Part shown: positions 23,283 to 41,837 of the stretch, piece after piece
Layout: each line of letters starts with the position of its first letter
Numbering within the stretch: the first letter of the stretch is position 1
Source of the DNA: Escherichia coli
Lineage (GTDB): Bacteria; Pseudomonadota; Gammaproteobacteria; Enterobacterales; Enterobacteriaceae
Strand: one strand, 5' to 3'
Length of the DNA: 64,000 bases
NCBI RefSeq assembly: GCF_003334305.1
Contig: NZ_QOWS01000017.1
Made by a program: the position numbers and the translations under genes
Notes under the pieces: generated by a model
The model's input: only the letters and a program-made list of their open reading frames with translations
Told to the model about the DNA's origin: nothing
Database searches by the model: none

Positions 23283-23358
23283 GCCGATATAGCTCAGTTG
23301 GTAGAGCAGCGCATTCGTAATGCGAAGGTCGTAGGTTCGACTCCTATTATCGGCACCA
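23283..23358 (+). tRNA. thrW: tRNA-Thr (anticodon CGU)
   Basis: 76-nt cloverleaf sequence GCCGATATAGCTCAGTTGGTAGAGCAGCGCATTCGTAATGCG...CACCA; anticodon loop tTCGTAAt. Confidence 0.9.
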
Positions 23359-23360
23359 TC
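23341..23360. repeat. att core, copy 1 (3' end of thrW): ctcctattatcggcaccatc
   Basis: Exact 20-bp repeat also at 35186-35205; 19/20 copy at 47261-47280. Confidence 0.8.
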
Positions 23361-23522
23361 CCCACTTCTTCAAACGTCCGTATTTGTCCGTAACCATACT
23401 GTTTTATAAAAGATTTTTTGTTCTTGTTGTCCGTATTAGTCCATAACCTTCCAGTAGAATCCAGTACTAAATGTGTATAGGATTATGTATATGTTCCTGT
23501 TCGACTTTGGAATTCTATACAC

Positions 23523-24692
23523 ATGCCCCTAAATGATATGCAGATTCGTCGTGCTAAACCTGAAGCTAAAGCCTATACACTTGGGGATGGGCAAGGGCTG
23601 TCTTTACTTGTAGAGCCAAATGGAAGTAAAAGCTGGCGATTTCGTTATCGCTATGCAGGTAAACCTAAAATGATCTCGCTTGGTGTCTATCCAACGATCA
23701 CACTTGCTGAAGCTCGTTCCCGTCGTGATGAGGCCCGAAAAATAGTGGCTGAGGGAAAAAACCCTAGTGAGGTACGAAAAGAACAAAAACTAGCATTAAG
23801 AATTCAATCTGAGAATGCATTCGAAAAGATTGCTAGAGAGTGGCATCGGATGAAGTCGTTAAAATGGTCTGCTGGGTACGCCTCGGATATTATGGAAGCG
23901 TTCCAGAATGATATTTTTCCGTATGTGGGAACGAGGCCTATAGGAGAAATTAAACCGCTAGAGCTGTTAAATGTACTGCGTAAAATTGAGAAGCGTGGCG
24001 CATTGGAGAAAATGCGAAAAGTACGGCAACGTTGCTCAGAAGTTTTTCGATATGCCATTGCTACCGGAAGAGCAGAGTTTAATCCTGCCGCAGATCTATC
24101 CAGTGCTCTCGAAGTACATAAATCAAATCATTTTCCATTCTTAAAATCAGATGAGATACCTGATTTTCTGCGTGCTTTAGATCGCTATACAGGGAGTCAA
24201 CTTGTCGTTATTGCTACGAAGTTATTGATGATCACGGGAGTAAGAACCATCGAATTACGTACCGCATTATGGTCAGAATTTGATTTGGATAACGCTATTT
24301 GGGAAATTCCTGCTGAAAGAATGAAAATGCGCAGGTCACATCTTGTTCCATTGTCGACTCAAGCGTTAGATTTACTTAATGAACTCAAGATAATGACAGG
24401 GAACTATCGTTATGTTTTTCCGGGGCGGAACGACCCGAACAAGCCTATGAGTGAGGCGAGTATAAATCAGGTTATCAAAAGGATTGGTTATGGCGGAAAA
24501 CTTACTGGACACGGATTTAGGCATATGATGTCTACATTGTTGCATGAACAAGGGTTTGATTCATTTTGGATTGAGATTCAATTAGCCCATGTAGATAAAA
24601 ATAGTATTCGTGGAACTTATAATCATGCGCTGTATTTAGAAAAGCGAAGAGATATGCTTCAGTGGTACTCTTCTTTTATAATGGAGCACTAA
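23523..24692 (+). CDS. int: P4-type tyrosine integrase
   Basis: 389-aa ORF directly 3' of the tRNA; P4-integrase-like N-terminus and C-terminal R/H-x-x-R/Y catalytic signature (…GHGFRHMMST…). Confidence 0.9.
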   Translation: MPLNDMQIRRAKPEAKAYTLGDGQGLSLLVEPNGSKSWRFRYRYAGKPKMISLGVYPTITLAEARSRRDEARKIVAEGKNPSEVRKEQKLALRIQSENAFEKIAREWHRMKSLKWSAGYASDIMEAFQNDIFPYVGTRPIGEIKPLELLNVLRKIEKRGALEKMRKVRQRCSEVFRYAIATGRAEFNPAADLSSALEVHKSNHFPFLKSDEIPDFLRALDRYTGSQLVVIATKLLMITGVRTIELRTALWSEFDLDNAIWEIPAERMKMRRSHLVPLSTQALDLLNELKIMTGNYRYVFPGRNDPNKPMSEASINQVIKRIGYGGKLTGHGFRHMMSTLLHEQGFDSFWIEIQLAHVDKNSIRGTYNHALYLEKRRDMLQWYSSFIMEH

Positions 24693-24693
24693 A

Positions 24694-26397
24694 ATGTATA
24701 TTGATAATGTGTATTTAAAAGGATTTAGGAACTATTCTGATAGTTTTGTAAAATTTAATTATTCAACTCTTATAATTGGTGGTAATGATGTTGGTAAGAC
24801 CAACTTATTGTATTCATTAAGGATTTTGTTGGATAAAAGCTTTTCGGATTTAGATTTAGAACCTAAAAATAGCGATTTTCATATTGATGCGAAAGGAAAT
24901 CAGTGTGAAGAGTTAGAAATAATAATTAATTTTCGTGAAGTAAAAGAGGATGCTGTTCTCTCTAAGTTAGCGGGGTATGTTAGTGATGATGCACAAACAT
25001 ACATCAAATATAAAGCATACAGAGCTACTCTTGATTACAAGTTATATATAGGCCACAAAGAATCTGAAATGGATGAGATTAGTGGCAGATTTTATCTTAA
25101 ATATTTAAATTTACGCTATGTGAATTCACAGCGAGACCTTGCTAAATATATATCTACAGAGAAAAAACATTTACTTCGGCTTGCTCAGGAAATGAGAAAC
25201 GAGGAGCAAGTGCGGAAGGATGAAAATACTTTGAATGAATTAACTAATTTATTAAATGATGTCAATGATAAGGTAAAAGAAATAAGCTACGTCTCGACCG
25301 CTACGGAAGAATTGAATGATGAGTTAAAGAAATTATCATATAACAATGAAAAGATTTCTGTAATGCTCGATTCTGGAGCAATTGGTGTTGATCAGTTTAT
25401 TGAAAAATTAGAGTTAAGTTCAAATACAAATGGAAAAAAGGTAATGCTTGGAGGGGACGGATTTAATAACCAAGTATTACTTGCATTATGGAAAGCCAAG
25501 AGTGTACGCGAGCACGATACTGAAAATGAAGTGGTTATATATTGTGTTGAAGAACCTGAATCACATCTTTATCCGCACCAACAGAGAAAATTATCTGAGT
25601 ATTTAATTAGTAAATTGCCGGGGCAGTCTCTAGTAACTACGCATTCTCCGCAAATTGCCATTAATTACTCACCAGATTCAATAATTAAAATTTGCTCTTA
25701 TAACGGTGAGTCTTACGCAGCAAGTGAAGGGTGTTCAGATTGCATAAGTAATGCCTGGAGTGGAATGGGATACAGGATGAGTATACTTCCTGCAGAGGCA
25801 TTCTTCGCTAATGTCGTATTCTTGGTCGAAGGGCCTTCTGAAATGTTATTTTATCAGGCCCTTGCAAAAGAGTGCCAAATTGATCTGGATTTCTTTAATA
25901 TAAGTATATTATCAGTTGATGGCGTTCAATTTGAAGTTTATAGAAAAATTCTTGATGCACTTGAGATTAAATGGGTTGCTCGTACAGATAATGATTCGTC
26001 TAAAGTTCCAAGGAAAAAAGAGTGGCAATATTCAGGTTTAAATCGAGCTTTGGCTCTATGTGGAATGGAGCCACTAAAGAATGAATTAACGGAAATATCT
26101 CAAGCTCAAAGAATAGAGAAACACAAAATTTATAAAGATAAGCTTAAACATCATAATATATTTGTTTCAATTAATGATCTCGAGGGTGATATTGGCGTTG
26201 AGTTAAGTACACAGCTGAAAGAATATGTAGGTGTTGATAATGAGGAAATTGCTGCTGATTATTTAAGAGGAAAGAAAGCAATAAGGATGCAAGAGTTCTT
26301 AGGTGAATACTCTTATGCACTGAAAAATATTTCAGACGGTGAATTAATTCAACCCCTTTTAACTGCTGTAAAATTGGCTACGGAAGAGTTGAGATGA
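24694..26397 (+). CDS. gajA: Gabija GajA-like protein: OLD-family ABC-ATPase plus TOPRIM nuclease
   Basis: 567 aa; N-terminal P-loop GGNDVGKTNLLYSL; ABC-like …VIYCVEEPESHLYPHQQRKL…; C-terminal TOPRIM-like …VVFLVEGPSEMLFYQ… and …ARTDNDSSK…. Confidence 0.75.
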   Translation: MYIDNVYLKGFRNYSDSFVKFNYSTLIIGGNDVGKTNLLYSLRILLDKSFSDLDLEPKNSDFHIDAKGNQCEELEIIINFREVKEDAVLSKLAGYVSDDAQTYIKYKAYRATLDYKLYIGHKESEMDEISGRFYLKYLNLRYVNSQRDLAKYISTEKKHLLRLAQEMRNEEQVRKDENTLNELTNLLNDVNDKVKEISYVSTATEELNDELKKLSYNNEKISVMLDSGAIGVDQFIEKLELSSNTNGKKVMLGGDGFNNQVLLALWKAKSVREHDTENEVVIYCVEEPESHLYPHQQRKLSEYLISKLPGQSLVTTHSPQIAINYSPDSIIKICSYNGESYAASEGCSDCISNAWSGMGYRMSILPAEAFFANVVFLVEGPSEMLFYQALAKECQIDLDFFNISILSVDGVQFEVYRKILDALEIKWVARTDNDSSKVPRKKEWQYSGLNRALALCGMEPLKNELTEISQAQRIEKHKIYKDKLKHHNIFVSINDLEGDIGVELSTQLKEYVGVDNEEIAADYLRGKKAIRMQEFLGEYSYALKNISDGELIQPLLTAVKLATEELR

Positions 26398-28016
26398 TAG
26401 ATTTTACCCATGAGCAAAAAGCAGCAATAGATTACCCATCTAGTATGGTATTGACGGCTTGTCCTGGAAGTGGGAAAACAGCAGTAATCGTAGAGAAGAT
26501 TGTCCGTGACTTGGTGGAATGCAAGGAATATCAGGGTGTTATTGCCATATCGTATACTAACAAAGCAAGCGATGAACTGAAAAAGAGATGTTTAAAGGCT
26601 ACTCCAAATTCAAAATCAAGCTTTTTTGGGACAATAGATAAATTTTATTTGACTGAAGTTATTTTACCATTCATTAAGCAATTATGGGGAAGAGTTGATG
26701 ACTTACATGTAGTTAAGCTTAATGAGTTAGCTTCTTCTGAAAAAGATAGGCTTTCTGCTTTTTTTAATGTCGAATTCATTTGTGAAAAAATTAATGAGTA
26801 TGATTTTAAGGATATAAAGGAACTATACGCCAATGGTATTCTAATACTGGAGTTTATACCATTGCTTGCATTTTATATATTGCGTAACTCGTTAGCATGT
26901 CGCCGATATATCGCTAAAAAATACACATCTATATATATTGATGAGTATCAAGATGCTGGATGTGTTCAGCATCTTCTTTTTCTTTATCTTTTCGAACTTG
27001 GAGTAAAAGCGGTTGCAGTTGGTGATGCTGACCAATCCATATATTCATATGCGGGTAAAAGTTCGAAATACTTAATGTCTTTACTGGATGAAAAAAGTGG
27101 CTTTGCCCCTTTTAAAATAACTATAAATCATCGTTCTCATTCATCTATAGTTAATTATGCTTCTCGATTGTTGAATGAAAACTGTGACTTGTTAATAACA
27201 GATGAAATTCGTGTCTACAGAAAAACTGTTAATGGTACTCAATGTGAAATAGCTAAGTGGATTGATGCTAATATTAACAATATTAAACGAAAGTTCAATA
27301 TTTCAAAAGAAAAAGAGATAGCGATACTTACTGCAACGAATAGTTCTGTCGCTTTAGTATCCGGCCTTATAAACTCCAAAGCAAGAGCATATCTTGATGA
27401 TGAGCTGTCTGTACTCGGTGGAGATGTGTCTCTCTTATTAAAGAACCTTTTGAATTATCGATTTAATAAAACGATTACAGCACAGGCTATCATTGAAAGT
27501 TTAAATTACAAGGTGCTAGAGAGGAATGCAATAAGAAAGATGAGGGGGGTTATTAGAGATGTGAGAGATTCTAATGACAACCAACTTATTCCTGATTTAC
27601 GTAAGGCAGTAAAATTATTAATCAACGCTGATATTTCTGCTAACCATATTGATGCCATTAACTCAATCTTACACAATAAAATGATGCTAAATAATTATTT
27701 ACCAGTTAGTGATGATGAGTTACAAATAATGACTTTACATAAAGCAAAAGGACTAGAGTTCGACTTTGTTTTTCATTTGGATCTTTATGATTGGATATTA
27801 CCGCGAAGGGAATATATAAAACATTGTTTTGATGAGGTTTTTTCACATTATGAGCAATGTCTGAATCTTCATTATGTTGGAGTTACTAGGGCCAAAAAAG
27901 CCGTGGTATTAATAAATTCTACTGAGCGTTTAAATTATCAGAGTGAATTAAAAAAAGCGAAACCATCTCAGTTCTTGTCACTAAAAGGACTTGAAAGTCT
28001 GTATAAAAAAATTTAA
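26394..28016 (+). CDS. gajB: Gabija GajB-like protein: UvrD/Rep-like SF1 helicase
   Basis: 540 aa; helicase motifs I CPGSGKT, Ia ISYTNKAS, II IDEYQDAG, V/VI …TLHKAKGLEFDFVFHL…; start overlaps the gajA stop. Confidence 0.75.
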   Translation: MIDFTHEQKAAIDYPSSMVLTACPGSGKTAVIVEKIVRDLVECKEYQGVIAISYTNKASDELKKRCLKATPNSKSSFFGTIDKFYLTEVILPFIKQLWGRVDDLHVVKLNELASSEKDRLSAFFNVEFICEKINEYDFKDIKELYANGILILEFIPLLAFYILRNSLACRRYIAKKYTSIYIDEYQDAGCVQHLLFLYLFELGVKAVAVGDADQSIYSYAGKSSKYLMSLLDEKSGFAPFKITINHRSHSSIVNYASRLLNENCDLLITDEIRVYRKTVNGTQCEIAKWIDANINNIKRKFNISKEKEIAILTATNSSVALVSGLINSKARAYLDDELSVLGGDVSLLLKNLLNYRFNKTITAQAIIESLNYKVLERNAIRKMRGVIRDVRDSNDNQLIPDLRKAVKLLINADISANHIDAINSILHNKMMLNNYLPVSDDELQIMTLHKAKGLEFDFVFHLDLYDWILPRREYIKHCFDEVFSHYEQCLNLHYVGVTRAKKAVVLINSTERLNYQSELKKAKPSQFLSLKGLESLYKKI

Positions 28017-28036
28017 TTACGTATCTTGGCGCGCAG

Positions 28037-28055
28037 TGCTCTCCCCGCCTCGCCC
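28037..28055 (-). other. P2/P4-type cos site (19-nt cohesive-end sequence)
   Basis: Reverse complement ggcgaggcggggagagcac differs at one position from the P2/P4 cos sequence as I recall it (GGCGAGGCGGGGAAAGCAC). Confidence 0.6.
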
Positions 28056-28219
28056 GCCCGCTTTGCGGGGCGGTTTTAATGCAGTTGCACTGACACGCTC
28101 AGACCGCGCCGGGAATGGCGCGGTCTGCAGAAAATGAGTCAGGAAAACGCATGCAAAGCCATGCACCTTATCGATGCATGGCTTTTTTCAGTAAAAACAG
28201 GCGGATTTTTCGGGGAGTT

Positions 28220-28792
28220 TTACACAGACTGACGTGATGCCAGTTCTGCACTTTTACGCGAAAAAATCATGTTCTGCGCAGGGGTGAATTTTTCACGGCT
28301 GTCATCCACCGAAGCCGCGTCAGGCCTGAATCCGATGGTCGTTAAAATGTCGCTATCCTGTGCGGAATAATTAATTTTTTCCCCCTTCGCAAGCCAGGAC
28401 AGAAGGGCTTCACGCAGGGCATCTGTGGCACGCTGTATGGCACAGTTTCGGGCAATGGCCGTCAGCTCACTGTAGCCCATCAGCTCCGGTGCCAGTGCGG
28501 CCGCCAGTGCTGTGCCGTGCTGCTGCATAAAATCATTCAGCCGCTCGCGGATGCTGATGTGCTGAACGGCTTCATGCGAACGAACATAACGACCGGCGGC
28601 CTGATTCACCTGCCATTTTCTGACTTCGATAATATTGCGTAATTCGTCCAGGCGACTGACGTTTCTGCCTTCCCCGGACAGAAGCCGCAGATATTCCTGT
28701 TCGGCTGCCGCCAGTTCATTTTTGCGCTGAAGCCATGCCGCTTTGTTATTCTGGCAGACCTCAAAAGCCTGCTGTAATGACATTGTGGTCAC
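28220..28792 (-). CDS. psu: P4 Psu (polarity suppression / capsid decoration protein)
   Basis: 190-aa ORF; …LQQAF..CQNNKAAWLQRKNELAAAEQEYLRLL… matches P4 Psu as I recall it. Confidence 0.85.
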   Translation of the reverse strand: MTTMSLQQAFEVCQNNKAAWLQRKNELAAAEQEYLRLLSGEGRNVSRLDELRNIIEVRKWQVNQAAGRYVRSHEAVQHISIRERLNDFMQQHGTALAAALAPELMGYSELTAIARNCAIQRATDALREALLSWLAKGEKINYSAQDSDILTTIGFRPDAASVDDSREKFTPAQNMIFSRKSAELASRQSV

Positions 28793-28806
28793 ACCCCGTC
28801 TCCTGA

Positions 28807-29052
28807 TTAATGGTTGAATGGTGAGCTGTAACAGCCTTTAACTTTTCGGACAACAGCCGGTGCTGTGCTTGCCGGTGCTGGTTTTTCCTCCGTGACCGGA
28901 GAACGAATCACGGCACAAATTGACTCATGCGTTTTAAATGTCGCCGAACAGTAAATATTCTGGCACTGCAGATAACTTTCTTTGACATTGTCACTCACAT
29001 ACCGGCTGGTGCGGGTATGCGCTGAATGACGACAGAAAGGGCAGCGCATCAT
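28807..29052 (-). CDS. Ogr/Delta-family zinc-finger late-gene activator
   Basis: 81-aa ORF with C-x2-C…C-x4-C pattern (MMRCPFCRHSAHTRTSRY…CQNIYCSATF) like P2 Ogr / P4 Delta. Confidence 0.85.
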   Translation of the reverse strand: MMRCPFCRHSAHTRTSRYVSDNVKESYLQCQNIYCSATFKTHESICAVIRSPVTEEKPAPASTAPAVVRKVKGCYSSPFNH

Positions 29053-29783
29053 GACAGCAGTCCTCTGGCCTTAAGCACTGCTCCCTGCTGGTCTATTTTG
29101 TCCTGCCACACCTTGCGCTGTGCCGGTGTGCCTGCCACCTCATAATCCATGTGCGGGAGTGTTGCCGCTGACAGTCCGGTCAGCCGGAGAACCGGCTCGC
29201 CGGTGAGGCTGATTTGCATCTGTTTTATTTTCTGTTCCAGCGATGATTTCACCTGCTGCATGACAGCTTTATCGGGTGCGACGTAGCCCTGATGGCCGGT
29301 GGTGTTGGCGAGCGGATTTTCCTGTACCAGGATACTCAGATGCATTGCCCGGACAAGCGCCTCACAGGTTTCATTCAGGGCGTGTTCCAGCTCATGCTCT
29401 GCATACAGACTCAGAAGGTGATGATGTGCCTTCCGGTAGGCGGTGGCCGTGCTGTCACACGCCCCTTTCAGGCGTTCACGTTCAAAATTCAGCACCACGG
29501 CCAGATTGTCATATTCCTGTACCAGCTCCCGGCGTGCCACGCGCTCAATGTGGCGCTGTTTCAGCTCATCGCTCAGGACACCACCGGCTGCACGAAAGGC
29601 CGTGCGCCAGTCGTCAGCGTCGTTTCCGTCGGCCTGCGCCAGCGCATTTTTTTCCTGCTCTGCCCGTTCAATGGCCGTAACGGTCTCATCCATCAGGCGG
29701 GCGTTCTCAAGATGGGCGGCTCTGGACTTTTCCAGTTGTGCCAGTGCGGGTTGCAGATATTCAGGGATAGTGTGGTCAGACAT
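29049..29783 (-). CDS. sid: P4 Sid (capsid size-determination external scaffold)
   Basis: ORF 29049-29849; start placed at MSDHTIPEYL... (244 aa); coiled-coil-rich. Confidence 0.8.
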   Translation of the reverse strand: MSDHTIPEYLQPALAQLEKSRAAHLENARLMDETVTAIERAEQEKNALAQADGNDADDWRTAFRAAGGVLSDELKQRHIERVARRELVQEYDNLAVVLNFERERLKGACDSTATAYRKAHHHLLSLYAEHELEHALNETCEALVRAMHLSILVQENPLANTTGHQGYVAPDKAVMQQVKSSLEQKIKQMQISLTGEPVLRLTGLSAATLPHMDYEVAGTPAQRKVWQDKIDQQGAVLKARGLLS

Positions 29784-29817
29784 TTTCCGGCTCCTCGTCA
29801 CTTCAGGTTGAGAAAAT

Positions 29818-29873
29818 TGTGACGTACACCGGACAACAACACGACGCATTGCAGATGTGCCAGCCCTGACACA
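29818..29873. promoter_or_regulatory. two TGT-N12-ACA Ogr/Delta-type activator sites in the divergent late-promoter region upstream of sid
   Basis: TGTgacgtacaccggACA (29818-29835) and TGTgccagccctgacACA (29856-29873). Confidence 0.55.
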
Positions 29874-29951
29874 GGAGACTCATCCTCAGACCGGCAAGCC
29901 AGGAAAAGGTCGCAGGAAAAACCGGCTTACTGTTTGTTTTTTTATATTTTA

Positions 29952-30057
29952 CTGTTCACCTCTGTTCACCATAAGAAAAAAGATAAGTAATACAGTAAGT
30001 TAAAGGGTGAACAATCGCAGTAATGACTGTTCACCGTCTGTTCACCACTGTTCACCC
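29952..30057. repeat. P4 ori-like iteron cluster (TGTTCACC repeats, both orientations)
   Basis: At least six copies of tgttcacc or its complement within about 110 bp. Confidence 0.7.
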
Positions 30058-30335
30058 GTTGATGGGCTTTTTGTGCTGTTTATTACTGTTTGTTTTTATT
30101 AATTCGCCGGGAATGAATAAGAAAAAACGATTTGTATTTCACTATAAAAATTACGAATTGCTTTAAGTGGCTTTAAATGACTTTAAGTGGAGATGAACAA
30201 AAAACACACAAGCATTGTAAGGCTGCCGGAACAAATCCCCCCTGTTGCGTCTGCTGAAAATATTCACAAAATAAAACGCTACCCGAAGCCGGACGGACTT
30301 ATCCGGTGCTGTATGGACATTAACGAGGTAGCCCG

Positions 30336-30602
30336 ATGCAAGCTGTTTTTTCTTCCCCGTCTCCTGCCCCTGTGACGCCACTGATGCCGCTGCCGGACAT
30401 CACACAGGAGCGTTTTTTACGTCTGCCGGAAGTGATGCACCTGTGCGGCCTGTCACGCTCGACCATCTATGAACTTATCCGTAAGGGGGAATTTCCGCCG
30501 CAGGTGAGTCTTGGCGGTAAAAATGTGGCCTGGCTGCACTCTGAAGTCACCGCATGGATGGCCGGGCGCATTGCCGGACGCAAACGGGGGTACGACGCAT
30601 GA
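30336..30602 (+). CDS. AlpA/Vis-family small DNA-binding regulator
   Basis: 88-aa ORF; …[34 protein letters not shown]… is the AlpA-type HTH. Confidence 0.65.
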
Positions 30603-30991
30603 TGATGCCCGCTCTGCAAAAAGTCCCTTTTTCTGGCTTGCCTTTTTCCGGCATTTGCGGATATAGTTTTTCCGTTGCCGCAAAATCGGCAGCCGGGCGT
30701 GAGAACCCGTGTAACTCGAAGGCGACATATGACGCGCCATGCGTCTTTTTTTGTGTCGCAATCAACGCCACAGAGCGCCAGATTATGGTGTGGCGTGTGG
30801 TTTGCCGTGCAGGTATGATCCTGTTCGCAATCGCATGTTATGCCACTGAGTCAATGGTAGCTCAGGCGGGGCAGCCTCCGGGCTGGCCGGTATTCTTCGA
30901 GGCCGGTATTCTCACCCCCGTCTGGGCTATCGCCATCGAGCGTGAGAACTCCGGCGATAGCAGTTATTTGCTACTCGAAGGAGGCTGCCTT

Positions 30992-31189
30992 ATGGCTACA
31001 ACCCTTACCCCCTCACACCCTGAATTTGTCTTTGTGTTTGCGGCTGTCCGTCGCGCAGACCGTCATCCCCGTATCTGCATGCTTCGCACCGTCGCCGGTG
31101 ATGAACGCAGCGCCCGCCGTTCCCTTGTCCGTGACTATGTGCTCTCCCTTGCTGCCCGTCTGCCGGTGGTGGAGGTGTCCCGTGCGTAA
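30992..31189 (+). CDS. small hypothetical protein of the satellite early operon
   Basis: 65 codons from an ATG with a strong upstream aaggagg RBS, inside the longer ORF 30554-31189. Confidence 0.35.
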
Positions 31190-31469
31190 TAAAAAAGCCC
31201 CTCAGACCGTCTCAGCACGTCATGACGCCCGTGAACACCTCAGCATTGAGGCTTACCATAAGCTCAACCGCGCCAGCTCCGTATCCCAGTTTGTTGGGGG
31301 TGATTTGATTCACCGTGAACTCTCCGGCCTGCATCAGCTCTACATTCCGCATATTTTCAGCTACCTGAATGAAGATATTGATTTTGTGCTGAATGAGCTG
31401 AAAGCCAAAGGCCTGTGCCGCGATTTTCTCGCCCAGCAGAAAGACCGGGGAGACAGGACGCATGTTTGA
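31182..31469 (+). CDS. small early-operon protein, 95 aa from a GTG start (possible P4 epsilon-like anti-repressor)
   Basis: Tail of ORF 30942-31469; GTG preceded by ggagg; the size matches my recollection of P4 epsilon, but the assignment is not verified. Confidence 0.3.
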
Positions 31470-31917
31470 TTTTCCCCAGCCCGGTGAGATTTACCGTTCT
31501 GCCGGTTTTCCCGATGTGGCCGTGGTCGGCATTCTGGAAGACGGTATTCCGTGGGAAATGCCGTACCGCTGCCCGGACATTGTCTGGAACCCGTACCGCC
31601 GTAAATTCAGTATCCTTGTGCGTATCCTCGCTGACGGACGCACCACAGACATCCCGCTGGGGCGTTTTCTGCGGGAATTTACCTGTGACCGTCCTGACCT
31701 GTTTAAACGCAGCCCCGTAAACCGGCATGCGGTACTGAAAGAAATGGCCGGAGACCCGGAATTACAGAAATGGCGGGAAAAATATCTGGATATTTACCCG
31801 CAGGCCCCTGTTCCGGTCAGCCGGGCGGCACCGGTGGCGCGGGAATGGCGGGAAATTCCCCGCACGGAGCCTGACCCGGAAATCACCCCGGATAACAGTT
31901 ACCGCAATTATCTGTAA
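31462..31917 (+). CDS. P4 orf151-like hypothetical protein
   Basis: 151-aa ORF in the position and of the size of P4 orf151, upstream of alpha. Confidence 0.5.
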   Translation: MFDFPQPGEIYRSAGFPDVAVVGILEDGIPWEMPYRCPDIVWNPYRRKFSILVRILADGRTTDIPLGRFLREFTCDRPDLFKRSPVNRHAVLKEMAGDPELQKWREKYLDIYPQAPVPVSRAAPVAREWREIPRTEPDPEITPDNSYRNYL

Positions 31918-32052
31918 TTAAAAAACGACACCCGAAAAATTAAATGTGCGTATTCGCGCAGGGATACGCACGTCTTCAGGAGACGCAGATATGCCTTATC
32001 AGTTAATGCAACCGGCACGGAATGCAGTCATCTGTCACAGGGAGGAAAGCAA

Positions 32053-32373
32053 ATGAAAACCCCCTTACCGCCCGTCTTACGCGCAGCCCTTTACCGTCGC
32101 GCTGTCGCCTGTGCCTGGCTGACCGTGTGCGAACGTCAGCACCGCTACCCGCATCTCACCCTTGAATCACTGGAGGCGGCCATCGCCGCTGAGCTGGAAG
32201 GCTTTTATCTGCGCCAGCACGGTGAGGAAAAAGGGCGTCAGATAGCCTGTGCCCTGCTGGAAGATTTAATGGAATCCGGCCCCCTGAAGGCCGCGCCGTC
32301 GCTGTCCTTTCTCGGGCTGGTTGTGATGGATGAACTCTGTGCCCGTCACATAAAAGCGCCGGTACTGCACTGA
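32053..32373 (+). CDS. P4 orf106-like hypothetical protein
   Basis: 106-aa ORF immediately upstream of alpha. Confidence 0.5.
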
Positions 32374-32387
32374 AGGAGAACAACACC

Positions 32388-34721
32388 ATGAAAATGAACG
32401 TAACCGCCACCGTCAGCCATGCACTCGGCCACTGGCCGCGTATTCTCCCGGCGCTGGGGATTCAGGTGCTGAAAAACCGTCATCAGCCCTGTCCGGTCTG
32501 TGGCGGGAGTGACCGCTTCCGTTTTGATGACAGGGAGGGGCGCGGCACCTGGTACTGCAATCAGTGTGGTGCCGGTGACGGCCTGAAACTGGTTGAAAAG
32601 GTGTTTGGTGTTTCCCCGTCCGACGCGGCCGCAAAGGTGGCTGCCGTGACCGGCAGCCTGCCACCGGCTGACCCGGCAGTGACGGCCGCCGCCGTTGCTG
32701 AAACAGACGCTGCCCGGAAGAACGCCGCCACACTGGCACAAACCCTGATGGCGAAAACCCGTACCGGAACCGGTAACGCCTACCTGACCCGCAAGGGCTT
32801 TCCCGGCCGGGAATGCCGGATGCTGACCGGCACACACAGAGCCGGTGGCGTGAGCTGGCGCGCCGGTGACCTTGTGGTGCCACTGTATGACGACAGCGGC
32901 GAACTGGTTAACCTTCAGTTAATCAGTGCTGACGGCCGTAAGCGCACCCTGAAAGGCGGACAGGTCAGGGGCACCTGTCACACCCTTGAAGGACAGAATC
33001 AGGCCGGAAAACGTCTGTGGATAGCGGAGGGATACGCGACCGCACTTACCGTACATCACCTGACCGGTGAAACGGTGATGGTGGCGCTTTCTTCCGTGAA
33101 CCTCCTTTCTCTGGCCAGCCTTGCCCGGCAGAAGCATCCGGCCTGTCAGATTGTCCTTGCCGCAGACCGTGACCTCAGCGGTGACGGCCAGAAAAAAGCC
33201 GCCGCAGCCGCAGATGCGTGTGAGGGCGTTGTTGCCCTGCCGCCGGTCTTCGGTGACTGGAATGATGCCTTCACGCAGTACGGCGGGGAGGCCACCCGTA
33301 AGGCCATTTACGATGCCATCCGGCCACCGGCTGAAAGCCCGTTCGACACCATGAGCGAAGCAGAGTTTTCCGCCATGAGTACCAGCGAAAAGGCCATGCG
33401 TATCTATGAGCATTACGGTGAGGCGCTCGCGGTCGATGCCAACGGCCAGCTTCTGTCTCGCTATGAAAATGGTGTCTGGAAGGTGCTGCCGCCACAGGAC
33501 TTTGCCCGGGATGTGGCCGGGCTGTTTCAGCGTCTGCGCGCGCCGTTCTCCTCCGGGAAGGTGGCCTCCGTGGTGGACACCCTGAAGCTGATTATTCCGC
33601 AGCAGGAAGCCCCCTCCCGCCGCCTGATTGGCTTTCGTAACGGTGTGCTCGACACACAGAACGGCACGTTCCACCCGCACAGTCCGTCACACTGGATGCG
33701 CACCCTGTGCGATGTGGATTTCACCCCGCCGGTGGACGGTGAAACGCTGGAGACCCACGCCCCCGCGTTCTGGCGCTGGCTTGACCGTGCCGCCGGTGGC
33801 CGTGCGGAAAAACGCGACGTGATTCTGGCCGCACTGTTTATGGTGCTGGCAAACCGCTATGACTGGCAGCTCTTTCTGGAGGTGACCGGTCCCGGCGGCA
33901 GCGGCAAAAGTATCATGGCCGAAATAGCCACCCTGCTGGCCGGGGAGGATAACGCCACGTCGGCCACCATTGAGACGCTGGAATCCCCGCGTGAACGTGC
34001 CGCGTTAACTGGCTTCTCACTGATACGCCTGCCGGACCAGGAAAAATGGAGCGGCGACGGTGCCGGACTCAAGGCCATCACCGGCGGCGATGCGGTGTCC
34101 GTTGACCCGAAATACCGGGATGCATACTCCACGCATATCCCGGCGGTGATTCTGGCCGTGAACAATAACCCGATGCGCTTCACCGACCGCAGCGGCGGCG
34201 TGTCACGCCGGCGGGTGATTATTCACTTCCCGGAACAGATAGCCCCGCAGGAGCGCGACCCGCAGCTTAAGGACAAAATCACCCGCGAGCTGGCGGTCAT
34301 CGTGCGTCACCTGATGCAGAAGTTCAGCGACCCGATGCTCGCCCGGTCACTGCTTCAGTCCCAGCAGAACTCAGACGAGGCGCTGAACATCAAACGGGAT
34401 GCCGACCCGACGTTTGATTTTATCGGCTATCTGGAAACCCTGCCGCAGACCAGCGGCATGTATATGGGGAACGCCAGTATCATCCCGCGTAATTACCGTA
34501 AATACCTCTATCACGCCTATCTGGCCTACATGGAGGCAAACGGCTACCGGAATGTACTCAGTCTGAAAATGTTCGGGCTGGGGCTGCCGGTGATGCTGAA
34601 GGAATACGGACTGAATTACGAGAAGCGCCATACCAAACAGGGGATACAGACCAACCTGACGCTGAAAGAGGAAAGCTACGGCGACTGGCTGCCAAAATGT
34701 GACGACCCTGCAACAACCTGA
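32388..34721 (+). CDS. P4 alpha primase-helicase (zinc-finger primase, P-loop helicase, C-terminal iteron-binding domain)
   Basis: 777-aa ORF; N-terminal CPVCGG…CNQCG zinc motif; Walker A GPGGSGKS in the central region. Confidence 0.9.
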   Translation: MKMNVTATVSHALGHWPRILPALGIQVLKNRHQPCPVCGGSDRFRFDDREGRGTWYCNQCGAGDGLKLVEKVFGVSPSDAAAKVAAVTGSLPPADPAVTAAAVAETDAARKNAATLAQTLMAKTRTGTGNAYLTRKGFPGRECRMLTGTHRAGGVSWRAGDLVVPLYDDSGELVNLQLISADGRKRTLKGGQVRGTCHTLEGQNQAGKRLWIAEGYATALTVHHLTGETVMVALSSVNLLSLASLARQKHPACQIVLAADRDLSGDGQKKAAAAADACEGVVALPPVFGDWNDAFTQYGGEATRKAIYDAIRPPAESPFDTMSEAEFSAMSTSEKAMRIYEHYGEALAVDANGQLLSRYENGVWKVLPPQDFARDVAGLFQRLRAPFSSGKVASVVDTLKLIIPQQEAPSRRLIGFRNGVLDTQNGTFHPHSPSHWMRTLCDVDFTPPVDGETLETHAPAFWRWLDRAAGGRAEKRDVILAALFMVLANRYDWQLFLEVTGPGGSGKSIMAEIATLLAGEDNATSATIETLESPRERAALTGFSLIRLPDQEKWSGDGAGLKAITGGDAVSVDPKYRDAYSTHIPAVILAVNNNPMRFTDRSGGVSRRRVIIHFPEQIAPQERDPQLKDKITRELAVIVRHLMQKFSDPMLARSLLQSQQNSDEALNIKRDADPTFDFIGYLETLPQTSGMYMGNASIIPRNYRKYLYHAYLAYMEANGYRNVLSLKMFGLGLPVMLKEYGLNYEKRHTKQGIQTNLTLKEESYGDWLPKCDDPATT

Positions 34722-34765
34722 CCCACCTGACCGGCATCTGCCGGTCTTTTTTTATCCCTGAATTC

Positions 34766-35070
34766 CCCGAAGGTGAACAATCCACTGTTCACCCTTCACC
34801 GTATATTCACCCGTTATCACACTGAAATTAAAAGAGAAAAACGAAAGGTGAACAGTGTGAACAATCAAATCAAAAAAAACTTTTTTCTTCCTGAGTGATT
34901 TCAGCACGGGAAATTAATCCCCTGCACAAGTCACACCGGCAGAATGCCGGAGGTGAAGAATCGAATGTTCACCCTTCACCCATTATTCACCACCTATCCA
35001 ACTGAAATAAAAGGAGAAAACAGAAAGGTGAACAGTGTGAACAGTTCTTTCGAAAAAAAATTTTTTTCTT
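34766..35070. repeat. P4 crr-like region: two tandem repeats of about 120-125 bp, each carrying TGTTCACC-type iterons
   Basis: Near-identical units beginning ccgaaggtgaacaatccactgttcaccc… and ccggaggtgaagaatcgaatgttcaccc…. Confidence 0.7.
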
Positions 35071-35185
35071 ATTTTTAATTGTGCGAAAAACAAGCGACAC
35101 ACGCAGTGTGTATAGATATGTGTATAGTTATATTTTTTGAATATTATAATGTATTACAAATCAATGTGTTAGCTTGTAATATTCA

Positions 35186-35205
35186 CTCCTATTATCGGCA
35201 CCATC
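35186..35205. repeat. att core, copy 2 (attR of the P4-like satellite and left boundary of element 2)
   Basis: Exact 20-bp copy of the thrW 3' end. Confidence 0.8.
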
Positions 35206-35808
35206 AAGAAAATCAATAACTTAGCTTAACTTCTCTAAGAAATTGTATCTTCTGTTATCACTTACAAACGCCTATACGTTGTTATGGGCTTTGGTAGTGT
35301 AACACGTATGGGCGAGTAGTTCCCAGGCTCAACCTCGTAACAAGTTCCTTTGAAGCTGGAAGACGTGCCACCGTCTCTAAACCTTCTACCAAAACTCTTA
35401 GCAAGATGTTCCACACCTGGCGCGGTGTCCAATGATGCTACACGTCGTGAGACGTTGCAGAGGATAAACAGGCTAAATGATGGGAAGAGTTTTAAGTGCA
35501 ATAGTGGATTAAAGCCCACCTCTTCAAAACCTAACTTGATCGGGAAAGAATCAAGCTCTAGCACGGTTTCGTCCACCGGAGTACAACGGGTGCCTGATAA
35601 GAGAAGAACTGCTAAGACTTCATAGCTTTTGTGAAAAAGCCCTTTTTAGTGGATACGCCTACGGCGCTTATTTTTTGGTATAACCATCAAAGGCGCTTTA
35701 TGGCTCCTATTGTCTTGAAAATGTATCTTTACTTGTATTGTGTTTTATGCGTAGTCTCCCTGTGTAGTATGTAACTTGTTAATTTTCATATGAATACAGA
35801 GGCACACG

Positions 35809-35967
35809 ATGAAAAACATTGCAGCTATCAAACGGAATAACCGCAAGATTCACGCTCGTAAGTTCCTGTCTACGCCAGAAGGAAAAGCCTGGCTAGAGCG
35901 TAAACAGAGAGAAAACGAAGAAAGAAAACTCCTTAGTGAGTTGAAATGGCTTAGAGAGGATTTCTGA
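35809..35967 (+). CDS. small basic hypothetical protein (52 aa), below the ORF-track size cutoff
   Basis: ATG preceded by an agagg RBS; translation MKNIAAIKRNNRKIHARKFL…. Confidence 0.3.
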   Translation: MKNIAAIKRNNRKIHARKFLSTPEGKAWLERKQRENEERKLLSELKWLREDF

Positions 35968-36310
35968 AAATCTCCAGAACGCAACAGGACGCATTCTAAC
36001 GCTGTTTTCATTACTCGGTATAGGGATTATAGGTGATGTGTGTTTAATGCGTCTGTGAGCTTGTTTTGTGCCTTATTTTGCATTTTCATAATGCAGGAGA
36101 GAACACGGAAAGCCTTAAAATTAATTATTGGGGTATTTAAGGCTATTTTTAGGTTATTTAAGGGTATTAAACTTGATTTAATTGATTGAAATATAAACAG
36201 ATAATTATGTATCTTATTGATTTATAAGGTTATTTTTAAATAAAGGTAAATAAAAAATAAATAGCCATAAATAGCTATAAATACATCTAAATACCTATAT
36301 CCCTTCCCTT

Positions 36311-36694
36311 ATGGCTAGATTGCGAGAAGTGCTTAACGCGATTTTCAGCGCCCCCCGATCTGGAAAATCCAGAATCCCCAAATATCAGCAAGGAATTTTC
36401 TTGCGTAATCAACATCGTTTTTACCTATTAAATCATTACACAGAAAGCCTTTCTGTAATGTCTCTCACTAAACTTTCACTAAACACGAGAATGATCGGTT
36501 TTATGTCGGATCAGATGCTAGAAATAGCACCACGTCTCACAAGGGCTGTAAGCGATGAAACCAGTGTTTATGCGGGTGCAGGTCAAAATATAGGCCAAAA
36601 TACATTTAACATAATAAACGTAATATGCACTAAGGAACACATAGAACGCCTTGAGTTGATGTATCAGGGGAAAAGTGGTGGATTTTTTACGTAG
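36311..36694 (+). CDS. hypothetical protein
   Basis: 127-aa ORF in an AT-rich region; no recognisable motif. Confidence 0.25.
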   Translation: MARLREVLNAIFSAPRSGKSRIPKYQQGIFLRNQHRFYLLNHYTESLSVMSLTKLSLNTRMIGFMSDQMLEIAPRLTRAVSDETSVYAGAGQNIGQNTFNIINVICTKEHIERLELMYQGKSGGFFT

Positions 36695-36720
36695 GAGCAC
36701 GAGAGGGCTTCTATTGACTT

Positions 36721-36999
36721 TTGTATGCTATGAAATATAATAGAAGGTTTTTTTATGTTGATAGTGATTGCACATTAAAGATTGAAAGCAAATTTAAACA
36801 TAAATTTTCAACACGTGAAAGAGAACTTGTTCGACAAATGATAAAACGTTTATTGAGCAACAATTTTGCAGTGATGCGCTATATGCCGAATTACACAAGG
36901 CTTTGCGAAAGTGATGTAAAAGTGAAGAAAGTAAGAATTGCAACTTTAAGCTACTTTTCATTGAATTTTTTAGTATGGAATTACACAGGAATAAGTTAG
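36721..36999 (+). CDS. hypothetical protein
   Basis: 92-aa ORF; no recognisable motif. Confidence 0.25.
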   Translation: MYAMKYNRRFFYVDSDCTLKIESKFKHKFSTRERELVRQMIKRLLSNNFAVMRYMPNYTRLCESDVKVKKVRIATLSYFSLNFLVWNYTGIS

Positions 37000-37085
37000 G
37001 GATATTCTATGATTTACACAGGGAATATAGGGGGATTATGGCACACACATAGAAAGACATTACACAAAGTGCTATGTGACAAATG

Positions 37086-37303
37086 GATGTAACGAGAGGT
37101 TACATTCAGCTATCTGAAATGCTCTCTGTAAGAAAGTTGGTAGTAACGATATGTTACATAGACTAATTATTGAATGTAACGATATTACACATCGGTAGTA
37201 ACGATACGTTACATCGACTAATTATTGAATGTAACGATATTACACATCGGTAGTAACGATACGTTACATCGACAGATGATTGGATGTAACGAAAGGTTAC
37301 ACA
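37086..37303. repeat. iteron/operator array: seven GTAACG-N4-5-GTTAC-type palindromic sites, including two perfect 57-bp tandem units
   Basis: Units ggtagtaacgata(c/t)gttacat…gaatgtaacgatattacacatc repeated head-to-tail; an AT-rich stretch follows at about 37310-37390. Confidence 0.7.
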
Positions 37304-38398
37304 ATAAGACTATATTATTTATAATACTAAATAAAACTATATTAGATTATTAATTAGATCATAATAATATTCTTTATATCTATATATATGATCTTTTGCC
37401 TTCCGGCGTTAGCTTCACTCCCTGGCAAGCAGCCTTACTCCGCTACCTTTCGGGCTACGTTGGCTGGCCCGTTCCGCTCACACCGAAAGCAAAGCGTTAC
37501 TTTCTTCGTGTAACTATCGTGGCGGTAACGCCCACGAAGAAATACTATTGCGCTGTGCGCAGAAGAGTAATCACCTAACCAATCATAGATTGCTTATGTG
37601 TTAACTCTCTCTACCTCTTAATTCCACTTCCTACATTTAATAACTCTGTTATTCTCTGTAGTTGTGTAATTACTCGAAGAGAGAGCGGCTAAAGCTCAAT
37701 TACACTCTGCTTTCCTCGTGTAAGTTCACTAAGCCTCAATACAATTTCACTTCCTACATTCTGTAGTCGTGTAATTGTTTTCGGTGGAAAAGCCAGAGGC
37801 GACACCGAAAGAGAATTCTGATCTTATTAATCTTATCTATCTTAGTTAATCTTCTTACTTTATCTACTTTATTATTAATAATAGCTTTATAAGCTCTGTG
37901 TAGCTCTCTGACGCAAGAAACAGCATTCAGGAAGGGAATCACCTTAGAAAAGGTGTTCTTTGCGTCATAATGTGTTTTATGAAGGATTCAGAGGTGTTTC
38001 ATAACAGGAATGTATAGAGGATATTTTAATTAATTAAAAATAAGGGGTCTAAATGCTTCTCTAACAACATTAAGCAGGGTAGGGAATGGAAACGCATTGC
38101 CTACATATAATAAGCTCACTACAGGGCTTTACAGAGCGTTTTATAAAGTGACTCTCTGTTTTATATTTACCATTACCTTTTCATATACCTAACAAATACA
38201 AAATAAGCCCCTTCAATAAGCCTCTGGCGAGCGAAACAGCCATTAGATAAGGGAATGTATTGCTTTTATCAAAATCTCGTCAGAATGCGATTGAGAGTGT
38301 TTTAGCGGATAATGAAGAATAGCACTACATAGAAGAGCACGAATTGTTAAGCAAAATCATAACATACTGAAAAAGATCAGTTTTTTTGTGAAAAGGTA

Positions 38399-38427
38399 TT
38401 GACAAACGTCTCTTTCTGTGCAATAAT
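38399..38427 (+). promoter_or_regulatory. sigma70-like promoter (TTGACA, 17-bp spacer, TGcAATAAT extended -10)
   Basis: Read directly from sequence; about 130 nt upstream of the 38555 ORF. Confidence 0.5.
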
Positions 38428-38554
38428 AGGTATTAGAGGGGACAGGAATAGATTCTTATCCTCTAAATAATTAAACCAATGCACCGCACTTTGAAGCCCA
38501 AGAGGCTTGCAAGGTGTTTTTTCTTTTAACCAAATCGAATAAGGAGGCTAATTA

Positions 38555-38731
38555 ATGAAATATTTCACTCCACAGGATGTAGTAGAAGCCTGGAAACGTG
38601 GTGAGATCAACCGCTTTAAAGTAAGGATGTATAGAAACACCGCTCGCCGTTGTGGTTATCCAGAGCGTGAAAAATGTTTTGACGATGCACTGAAAATTAT
38701 TGATGAACTGCGTAAAGCTGAGAAAGAATAA
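38555..38731 (+). CDS. small hypothetical protein (58 aa)
   Basis: ATG with a strong aaggagg RBS; first gene after the promoter. Confidence 0.45.
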   Translation: MKYFTPQDVVEAWKRGEINRFKVRMYRNTARRCGYPEREKCFDDALKIIDELRKAEKE

Positions 38732-38753
38732 TAGACAAGAGAAGGAGAAAACT

Positions 38754-38921
38754 ATGAGCGAAACTAAGAAACCAATTCCGCGCACTTACCTTCACGTTGA
38801 CCCTGAAATCTTCAAGGTTTTATTTGCTGAAGCCAAGAAAAGGCAAATTATGGTCAGTGATTTGATGTTAGAAATCATTACTGAAGCAGCAGAGAACATC
38901 AAACAAAAAAAGGGTAAGTGA
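38754..38921 (+). CDS. ribbon-helix-helix (CopG/Arc-like) DNA-binding protein
   Basis: 55 aa; …RTYLHVDPEIFKVLFAEAKKRQIMVSDLMLEII… fits a beta-strand then two helices (RHH). Confidence 0.5.
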   Translation: MSETKKPIPRTYLHVDPEIFKVLFAEAKKRQIMVSDLMLEIITEAAENIKQKKGK

Positions 38922-38974
38922 TCCTCATTCACTTTAGTAGCGCATTAAGCGTGATTTATAAGGAGATGATTCTA

Positions 38975-39718
38975 ATGTCTAAAATTAAATTGATTCGTGA
39001 AAAATACCAGTATGTTGATAAACAAACAGGAGAAATTAAAGACCGAACTTTGAATATACCGCATTACTTTTGTGAGATTGAATTTATCTACTCCTCAAGT
39101 GTTGATGGTGGAAAAGTTAAGTTTAGTGCAGAAATGCAAAAATTATATTGCTATGTTTCAGATTGGGAGAAATCAGGGGGGATATGTTTTGAAACACAAA
39201 CGAAGTTAAGTAAAGTTTGTGGCTGTAGCCGTAAGACAGTTAATGAACTGATTGGTCTTATGATTAAAATCGGTCTTTTAGAAGAGGTCGGAGAACGAAT
39301 TCCAAAACGTCCTTTAAAATTACGTGCGCTACCTCTCACAGATGCACATATTACTCCCCCAGGAGAATCATCACTCTCTGATCTTTCTGAGGCAGAAGAA
39401 GCACAGGAACAACCTAAAGGCCATAAACAGCCTTCTTTTGATGTTCTTGATGATTGGGATGCGCCTTTACCGTGGGAGACGGAAGAAACACCTGTTTCAT
39501 CAAGTGAAAAGGTAGCTAATGATAATGAGGAGGATGTATTAGAGAATTTTGCCTCTCTTATCATCCAGGAGAAACACACAAGAACAGGAGGAGCATCATT
39601 TATTGAGTTTGCAAATTCACTAGCTTATAGATACGGGCTAAAACGACCAAATGGTATTGAGGCATATTTTTCTAAGAATTACCCAAATGTATATGATGAA
39701 TTTGATATTCCCTTTTAA
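38975..39718 (+). CDS. helix-turn-helix protein with acidic C-terminal half (candidate replication initiator or regulator)
   Basis: ORF 38918-39718; start placed at the ATG after an aaggag RBS; winged-helix-like segment …TQTKLSKVCGCSRKTVNELIGLMIKIGLLEE…. Confidence 0.5.
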   Translation: MSKIKLIREKYQYVDKQTGEIKDRTLNIPHYFCEIEFIYSSSVDGGKVKFSAEMQKLYCYVSDWEKSGGICFETQTKLSKVCGCSRKTVNELIGLMIKIGLLEEVGERIPKRPLKLRALPLTDAHITPPGESSLSDLSEAEEAQEQPKGHKQPSFDVLDDWDAPLPWETEETPVSSSEKVANDNEEDVLENFASLIIQEKHTRTGGASFIEFANSLAYRYGLKRPNGIEAYFSKNYPNVYDEFDIPF

Positions 39719-40141
39719 TAAGGAGGACTATGATTCAATATTTAGTAAAAAAATCAAGTAGACAGAATTCAGTGTAATGACACAGGAAAACGCATCTACG
39801 AAACACTTGCTTACCTCTATAAAGGAAAGCCAACACCGCTAAAATATAGCGATGTGTTACATCGAGCAGGGTGCTCTGAAGCTGGTTTAAAATTCTGGCT
39901 GAAACAGCTATCAAATTTCGGTGTTATTGAAATGAAAGAGCTGTCTTTTTCTACATTCAATCTCAAAAGATTAGATAAAGAAATAGAATTCATCTATTCC
40001 ACTCTCTAAAATCTCTCTATGTAATTAAAATATAAAAGGAAAACATTATTATGATAGTAGCTATGTATTGGTTATTGTTCTTTCTCACGTTAGAAGCATA
40101 CTTTGGGGTGTTTTCCTTTAAAAGAAAAGGAAAAGTAAATA

Positions 40142-40558
40142 ATGGCAAAAAGAAAAAACAACGTTGTTAAGAAAATCGGTGATTCAGCTTCTCTTCTAAG
40201 TAAACCTAAACCTAAATCTATTCTAAGACGTAAAGACTTTAAAGAGCTAGTTACGCTCACCAAGCAAAATAGCGCCCCTGGCGAATGGAAAACAGAGATC
40301 ATAGAACATTCTCCCTCTGTGCCTTGTGGAGATGAATTTAACGCCTTGCAAGAAATCTTATCTTCAACACCTGGCGTATTCTGGAAACCTAGAAAAAGAA
40401 AAGAGTATATCGTTGATAGCTCTGATTTACGCAAATACCAGATTTTAGGATTTGAAGATTATAACCACTACGTCGGTTATCTCGCCACCAATGGCCTAAA
40501 TAATTTAGTTCCTGAATTCCAAATTTTAGATAATGCTGATCACTATGGAGACTTTTAA
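40142..40558 (+). CDS. hypothetical protein with basic N-terminus
   Basis: 138-aa ORF. Confidence 0.45.
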   Translation: MAKRKNNVVKKIGDSASLLSKPKPKSILRRKDFKELVTLTKQNSAPGEWKTEIIEHSPSVPCGDEFNALQEILSSTPGVFWKPRKRKEYIVDSSDLRKYQILGFEDYNHYVGYLATNGLNNLVPEFQILDNADHYGDF

Positions 40559-40559
40559 T

Positions 40560-40898
40560 ATGAACAAAAACACGTATGACACAATTTATTCACTAATTAA
40601 TTATTATGAGGATGATTACCTCCTGCCTTTAAACCGCGCTGAACTTGAAGCATACAAAGAAAACACGCCAGGGGCGCTAAATGAGGCGTTTAAACACTGG
40701 GATTTAGCTGTGAATGCCTTTGAGCACCTTTCTAAAAGAGTAGAGATGCTCTGTAAGCGTGAAAACGCATACCTGACAGCCGATCAGATATGGGAGCTAT
40801 CAAACTGGATAGAAGATATTGAATCTGATGTTCGCTATGTAGGGGATGGCCTGGTTGAATTAGCTCAACGCTTAGGCGCTACTATCACAGAAGAATAA
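40560..40898 (+). CDS. hypothetical protein
   Basis: 112 aa from an ATG overlapping the upstream stop (taATG). Confidence 0.45.
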   Translation: MNKNTYDTIYSLINYYEDDYLLPLNRAELEAYKENTPGALNEAFKHWDLAVNAFEHLSKRVEMLCKRENAYLTADQIWELSNWIEDIESDVRYVGDGLVELAQRLGATITEE

Positions 40899-40927
40899 AA
40901 AAAGCAACAAAAAAGTTGTAAAATATC

Positions 40928-40959
40928 TTGACATTCCATCTATTGTATGTTAATATAAT
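40928..40959 (+). promoter_or_regulatory. strong sigma70-like promoter (TTGACA, 17-bp spacer, TAATAT)
   Basis: Read directly from sequence; followed by about 290 nt of structured leader before the 41248 ORF. Confidence 0.5.
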
Positions 40960-41819: not shown

Positions 41820-41837
41820 TAAAAGGAATAATAATAA

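Follow-up and report, generated by a model that had tools for sequence, protein, structure and literature searches.

The sid–orf88 control region of a predicted P4-type satellite at thrW in Escherichia coli

Upstream of sid, a 64-kb window of Escherichia coli DNA (the whole stretch of 64,000 nucleotides that was analysed) carries two TGT-N12-ACA motifs followed by a cluster of short repeats. Which promoters do these motifs serve, and does the region look like a working unit of late-gene control and replication? Our analysis indicates that it is very probably the Psid-ori-PLL control block of a P4-type satellite integrated at thrW, working as in P4. The control region is already known, as it is a near-identical copy of the classical P4 system: the 552-bp spacer between sid and orf88 is 99% identical to P4 X51522 (window 29740-30345, 606 bp; P4 coordinates ~9031-9582), and no iteron or dyad half-site differs. 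Three dyads stand at the same positions in both, the two on the sid side being identical and the third, assigned to PLL, keeping its half-sites; the six type 1 iterons and the three type 2 repeats are also identical. The spacer differs by about nine substitutions, three of them in the N12 of the PLL dyad, which reads TGTAAGGCTGCCGGAACA in the window and TGTAAGACAGCCTGAACA in P4.

The sid promoter, its two dyads and the delta gene

The two motifs next to sid are exact matches to TGT-N12-ACA, identical in P4: TGTGACGTACACCGGACA at 29818-29835 (the proximal dyad) and TGTGCCAGCCCTGACACA at 29856-29873 (the distal dyad), both assigned to the minus strand. A sequence-only reading of this DNA had placed two such motifs about 40 bp apart upstream of sid, and the positions bear it out, with exact coordinates and with a spacing of 38 bp between the two centres, which lie upstream of the sid ATG (29783, minus strand) by 43.5 and 81.5 bp. 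Activators of the Ogr family bind to inverted repeats of consensus TGT-N12-ACA, whose centres lie at about -55 relative to late-promoter starts, and work via RNA polymerase's alpha subunit (PMC3152322, PMC3931495).

Setting the centre of the distal dyad (29864.5) at -55 would put the start of Psid near 29809, 26 nt before the sid ATG, with a predicted promoter core at 29809-29821 (minus strand) and CACAAT at 29816-29821 as its -10 element. By this geometry both sid-side dyads would belong to Psid, the distal one at about -55 as the putative Ogr/Delta site and the proximal one at about -18, overlapping the predicted -10. The proximal dyad is probably a second Delta site, with a modulating or repressing role. 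We take it to be Delta 'site II' of Psid, a promoter on which Delta reportedly leaves footprints at -55 and -18. A 'consensus -10' annotated in 1984 in X02534 lies inside the distal dyad and is older than the promoter mapping; it was set aside.

The -35 region of Psid, read manually, has 2 of 6 consensus matches. A scan of 29600-30800 with the sigma-70 consensus detected PLE alone and returned no promoter at Psid or PLL, consistent with activator dependence of both. The motif pattern by itself carries little information: TGT-N12-ACA occurs 16 times in the window against 14.8 expected, showing no enrichment, and when 64-kb sequences were simulated with a first-order Markov model fitted to the window, 12% contained two dyads within 40 bp and 5% contained three within 420 bp, neither being significant. 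Since count and clustering show no significant signal, pattern statistics were rejected as stand-alone evidence, and the significance of the dyads comes from their position, their identity to P4 and their conservation.

In its architecture Psid resembles the Ogr-activated late promoters of the P2 family (P2 PP, PO, PV and PF), which share the TGT-N12-ACA dyad, the absence of a good -35 and a CX2CX22CX4C activator (PMC3931495, PMC3152322), the position of the dyad at about -55 being counted for Psid from its predicted start. It differs from them by the extra dyad overlapping the -10 region; furthermore, the satellite promoters flank a replication origin, and PLL adds cox boxes.

Conservation was assessed on a set of spacers comprising the window, P4, five E. 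coli genomes (67-93% identity) and 80 viral contigs retrieved with an orf88 profile, which gave 82 distinct sequences. A Sid-only query for related loci had returned only relatives 91-100% identical and was uninformative, and the orf88 alignment query was used instead. The distal dyad is found in all 82 distinct spacers, 76.5-83.5 bp from the sid ATG, in 16 variants that all keep TGT, ACA and an inner TG but differ in the remaining N12 positions and in the flanks, which is strong evidence that this site is under constraint. The proximal dyad is found in 46 of the 82, all of the P4 type; divergent satellites read TCT...ACA at this place. Because it occurs as a single sequence variant and in P4-type spacers only, its comparison speaks neither for nor against a function.

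The activator gene of the element differs from that of P4. Here delta (28807-29052, minus strand) encodes a predicted single-domain Ogr/Delta zinc-finger activator of 81 aa, with the CX2CX22CX4C signature in its translation (C4-X2-C7-X22-C30-X4-C35), whereas P4 Delta is a 166-aa tandem form. The protein encoded here shares 52% identity with the N-terminal half of P4 Delta, and its identity to the Ogr-like activators of the best-ranked P2-like phages is 54-57%. It matches NCBIfam PRK09678 with E = 1e-22 and 80 bits, short of the 116 set as the curated cut-off for this model; PGAP names the gene product 'ogr/Delta-like zinc finger family protein' in a 99.5% identical copy of the element, that of strain EC-107. 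From the psu start to the sid end the DNA no longer aligns with P4, which suggests a clean replacement of the delta cassette relative to P4.

These data bear on whether the proximal dyad still works in this element. It could be vestigial, or be recognised only by the tandem Delta of P4, which the element has lost, leaving the distal site alone in control of Psid. The restriction of the proximal dyad to the P4-type subgroup in one invariant form fits such a loss, and so does the delta gene: 41 of 42 sampled P4-type sid loci (viral contigs) have the two-domain 166-aa form, against the single domain of 81 aa here. However, the site is perfectly kept in this element and in all 46 distinct P4-type spacers, and Psid is also a target of the helper Ogr proteins, themselves single-domain. 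We therefore regard a silent proximal dyad as unlikely, and keep to the reading in which it would modulate or damp the promoter that the distal dyad activates.

The satellite and its integrity

The window is a 100% match to E. coli strain A7 (NZ_CP028767.1), where the host genes run phoE-proB-proA-thrW and are followed by an inserted element. The tRNA gene thrW (tRNA-Thr, CGT) occupies 23283-23358, and a perfect 21-bp direct repeat, ACTCCTATTATCGGCACCATC, found at 23340-23360 (the 3' end of thrW) and at 35185-35205, provides the att repeats that bound an 11.85-kb satellite at 23340-35205 (plus strand). Over positions 28055-35066 of the window, the identity to phage P4 is 97.6% (reverse strand of X51522, bases 11624 to 4291). 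The order int - cargo - cos - psu - delta - sid - alpA - epsilon - alpha is that of linearised P4, and all seven core components that define P4-like satellites (the set of Moura de Sousa & Rocha, PMC8628076) are present, open and in P4 order. By its sequence, then, the element is a P4-type satellite at thrW.

A tyrosine integrase, recognised by matches to integrase families, lies at 23523-24692 and is followed at 24694-28016, between integrase and cos, by a complete Gabija system as cargo, made up of gajA (567 aa, PADLOC E = 1e-253) and gajB (540 aa, PADLOC E = 3e-229). The cos cohesive-end sequence, GGCGAGGCGGGGAGAGCAC, is found at 28036-28054 (minus strand) with one mismatch to P4 bases 1-19. 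Also on the minus strand are psu (28220-28792, 190 aa, polarity suppression and capsid decoration; PHROG 6366, E = 1e-98), which aligns with P4 psu, and sid (29049-29783, 244 aa, capsid size determination), the first gene of the late operon, which matches PHROG 6165 (E = 1e-114) and P4 sid.

On the plus strand, orf88 (vis/alpA, 30336-30602) encodes a predicted excisionase-type helix-turn-helix regulator matching PHROG 2790 and 66 ('excisionase and transcriptional regulator') and corresponds to P4 ORF88. The helper-prophage derepressor epsilon (31182-31469, 95 aa) is identical to P4 epsilon at 93 of 95 residues, and the gene order also includes orf151 between epsilon and alpha. The counterpart of P4 ORF106 (orf106, 32053-32373, DUF5375 in PGAP) is presumably cnr, the copy-number regulator. 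As in phage P4 (X51522 / NC_001609), sid and orf88 stand on either side of the spacer, and the CI RNA, epsilon, alpha and crr are the same as well, whereas the integrase and att sites are thrW-specific, unlike those of P4, and gajA-gajB takes the position of gop-beta-cII.

Directly past attR, at 35206-47206, what seems to be another small mobile element follows. For its first 3.7 kb or so the strain A7 annotation has just one short gene (52 aa), and this part includes 55-bp tandem repeats at 37084-37303 that are possibly iterons. Its reading frames resemble a replication initiator (38918-39718), a major head protein (41838-42869), a tape measure and a tail fibre/endolysin, and a tyrosine integrase (45842-47206, minus strand) adjoins frames that match paoD-paoC-paoB of EC-107 by size and order. 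EC-107 itself lacks this second element, and attR is there followed directly by a LysR fragment and paoD.

P4-like satellites are very common chromosomal residents (PMC8628076), and P4-like elements were present in 1069 of 5426 E. coli genomes. This abundance, a cargo that is a defence system, and the lack of any visible helper prophage within the 64-kb window would all fit a functionally dead, domesticated prophage kept for its Gabija genes, in which promoters and origin are intact in sequence and disused. Such a fate seems improbable to us. None of the seven core genes is truncated, and those compared with P4 are 98-99% identical to it; att repeats, cos, crr, CI RNA and promoters are all present; and the 11.85 kb of the element are close to the P4 genome size (11,624 bp). 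Moreover, several unrelated E. coli genomes have the same element at 98-99.8% identity, ending at the 21-bp att repeat, which implies recent mobility. The earlier claim that late control and origin are intact holds as a statement about sequence identity and open reading frames: each of the required sequence elements is there and agrees with the P4 copy on which the experiments were done.

The replication origin and the rightward promoters

Six type 1 iterons, TGTTCACC, make up the ori core at 29953-30056 (plus strand) and are candidate binding sites for alpha. The direct copies start at 29953, 29963, 30028, 30039 and 30049, and the single inverted copy occupies 30006-30013. P4 records annotate the same six octamers as 'ori type 1 repeat' within the 'origin of DNA replication', and annotate octamers in crr as well. 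In the window, five further exact copies exist and all of them lie in crr (34772-35034), so that the proposed match between the iteron cluster and crr was right. Against an expectation of 1.6, the total of 11 copies was not reached in any of 100 shuffles, which puts the iteron cluster far beyond chance. A full-text literature search for TGTTCACC retrieved unrelated primer sequences only. A 'terminator-like' hairpin at 30006-30035 turned out to be the inverted iteron pair, and the terminator reading was dropped.

The crr region (34767-35066, plus strand) consists of two 120-bp direct repeats (34767-34886 and 34947-35066) with type 1 iterons, and aligns with P4 crr in the same organisation, including a degenerate GGTGAAGA copy. 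Around and beyond the ori iterons, an AT-rich tract (29900-30200, GC 0.26-0.36) is a candidate unwinding region. Its T-run GTTTGTTTTTTTA at 29932-29944 is unchanged in all seven aligned relatives. This run belongs to the left copy of a 22-bp direct repeat, TTACTGTTTGTTTTT(TT)A.., whose copies at 29927-29948 and 30083-30104 flank the iteron cluster 156 bp apart; the right copy is unconserved.

The presumed ligand of these repeats, alpha (32388-34721, plus strand, 777 aa; PHROG 2249), is identical to P4 alpha at 772 of 776 residues, with predicted primase, SF3 helicase and origin-binding parts; residues 671-770 match PDB 1KA8, the origin-binding domain of the P4 protein, with E = 1e-63. PMC2777425 describes alpha as a primase and SF3 helicase with a C-terminal winged-helix origin-binding domain, and PMC8628076 refers to origin recognition by alpha.

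The layout of the iterons, two direct, one inverted and three direct at fixed offsets, recurs in nearly all of 75 distinct spacers from viral contigs, with at most one or two degenerate copies, and in 7 of 7 sequences of one spacer alignment; the octamers vary little, as T(G/A)TTCAC(C/T). A seventh iteron, compared with the six of P4, occurs in some relatives of the P4 type, namely E. coli 2012C-4227 (L006), L063, L090 and L104, through a 10-11-bp duplication of one direct copy, placed in the left-hand pair in L063 and in the right-hand group in the other three.

Past ori, and beyond the interval covered by the sequence-only reading, a third TGT-N12-ACA dyad lies at 30216-30233 (plus strand), its centre 111.5 bp from the orf88 ATG. 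It is the putative Ogr/Delta site of the divergent late promoter PLL, again at about -55. Setting its centre (30224.5) at -55 would place the start near 30279, and TTGCGT (30245-30250) and CAAAAT (30267-30272), 16 bp apart, are at fitting positions for the -35 and -10 of a predicted core at 30245-30280 (plus strand); the manual reading gave 3 of 6 consensus matches for the -35. The Rfam isrK-like leader model sets the beginning of the PLE transcript at 30674, and the PLL start would lie 395 nt upstream of it, in agreement with the distance of about 400 nt reportedly separating PLL from PLE.

Psid and PLL are the divergent late promoters of the sid-orf88 spacer, both Ogr/Delta dependent (PMC3936717, PMC7552001). 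The expectation of divergent late promoters at the paired motifs needs refining: both motifs fit Psid, and a separate dyad across ori is the one assigned to PLL. That the two adjacent dyads instead serve one promoter each, the proximal for sid and the distal for the rightward promoter, as the sequence-only reading can also be understood, is hardly credible: the two promoters do share this spacer and palindromic dyads could in principle act in either direction, but the next rightward gene begins 462 bp past the end of the distal dyad, across ori, the third dyad keeps its 111.5 bp to the orf88 ATG and is accompanied by conserved blocks that resemble a -35 and a -10 and are suitably spaced, a proximal dyad at -55 would start transcription at 29771, inside sid, and 36 of the 82 relatives have sid yet lack the proximal dyad.

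Motifs and origin had been placed between sid and the early operon; they do lie between sid and the leftward-operon genes, but the immediate neighbour is orf88/vis, expressed from PLL, and the early promoter PLE follows orf88 at 30638-30667 (plus strand; TTGCCT-18-TATAGT in the promoter scan). Downstream come the isrK-like PLE leader RNA (30674-30751, Rfam isrK RF01394) and the CI immunity RNA, a C4 antisense RNA (30850-30937, Rfam C4 RF01695), and a c4-a1b1 target (30661-30713, Rfam RF03163) overlaps the leader, all on the plus strand. The three matches exceed the Rfam gathering scores, and the P4 immunity apparatus is intact.

Between the iterons and the PLL dyad, P4 annotation marks three 10-bp 'ori type 2 repeats' at 30161-30190 (minus strand), CTTTAAGTGG, CTTTAAATGA and CTTTAAGTGG. 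Their minus-strand reading, TTAAAGCCA and TTAAAGTCA, agrees with cox boxes (consensus TTAAA(G/C)NC(A/C)), with pattern matches at 30168-30176 and 30178-30186; binding of P2 Cox upstream of P4 PLL has been reported (PMC3936717). In the E. coli relatives 13P460A and 2012C-4227, whose spacers are otherwise 91-93% identical, unrelated sequence replaces the type 2 repeats (columns ~395-435 of the spacer alignment), which may reflect adaptation to helpers with a different Cox.

The exact N12 form of the PLL dyad occurs in 47 of the 82 spacers, in 8 variants, always centred 111.5 bp from the orf88 ATG, and 46 of these also have the proximal dyad. Several divergent groups carry TGT-N11/13-ACA at the same distance, and others have nothing recognisable there. 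The PLL core blocks TGTTGC and ATATTCACAAAATA are the best conserved part of the right half of the spacer across relatives. Across all relatives, the best-conserved non-coding block of the spacer is the predicted 5' leader of orf88 (30255-30335), containing GCTACCCGAAGCCGGACGGAC...CCGG, which has hairpin potential and could be a Vis operator or an RNA element.

Working of the control block and its meaning for P4-like satellites

From the motif positions, the identity to P4, the intact partner genes and the conservation of the sites, we infer the following course of transcription starts, protein binding and activity. A zinc-finger activator of the Ogr/Delta type, supplied by the satellite delta gene or by a P2-like helper, would bind the distal dyad at 29856-29873 and recruit RNA polymerase to the -35-less Psid, driving sid-delta-psu leftward. 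The proximal dyad at 29818-29835 would most likely modulate or damp this activation through its overlap with the -10. On the other side of the origin, the dyad at 30216-30233 would act as the activator site for rightward PLL transcription into vis/orf88 and the replication operon, with the cox boxes (30161-30190) bound by helper Cox; the remainder of the P4 circuit would consist of Vis, PLE and the CI RNA. Finally, alpha would bind through its C-terminal winged-helix domain to the iterons of ori and to those of crr, 4.8 kb away, its helicase would open the adjacent AT-rich DNA, and its primase domain would start replication.

Among Enterobacterales, divergent P4-like satellites (those of E. 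coli MB20, F95 and L2_E1649 or of the IMG/VR contigs L109-L142, for example) share the frame of this block: sid on the left, a distal dyad about 81 bp from its ATG, orf88 on the right, six iterons in the two direct, one inverted and three direct layout, and a conserved PLL core. In contrast, they have no proximal dyad, most have no exact N12 PLL dyad (some have N11 or N13), and their type 2 or cox-box region is unlike the one here. Judged by these alignments, the universal control sites of P4-like satellites are the -55 dyad of Psid, the iteron layout and the PLL core, and those found to be specific to the P4 subgroup are the cox boxes, the -18 dyad and an exact N12 dyad at PLL.

Characterisation of the sid promoter, PLL, ori and crr of P4 dates back decades, and with its 99% identity to them the copy described here carries little weight as a discovery. 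Its value lies in annotation: the thrW island of E. coli A7 is a complete and probably mobilisable P4-type satellite with Gabija, in which promoters, origin, cos and att sites can now be placed. Mildly new are the ranking of control sites into universal and P4-subgroup ones and the delta swap. The element may represent a natural exchange of delta cassettes, in which a dual-site Psid and an N12 PLL site of the P4 type, both confined to a subgroup whose Delta is normally the covalently duplicated 166-aa form, came to be paired with a single-domain Ogr-like Delta; this would rewire the autoregulation of the late operon if the -18 site is read specifically by tandem Delta, a scenario that we put forward as a long shot. 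If true, the element would be a ready-made test of why P4 Delta is duplicated.
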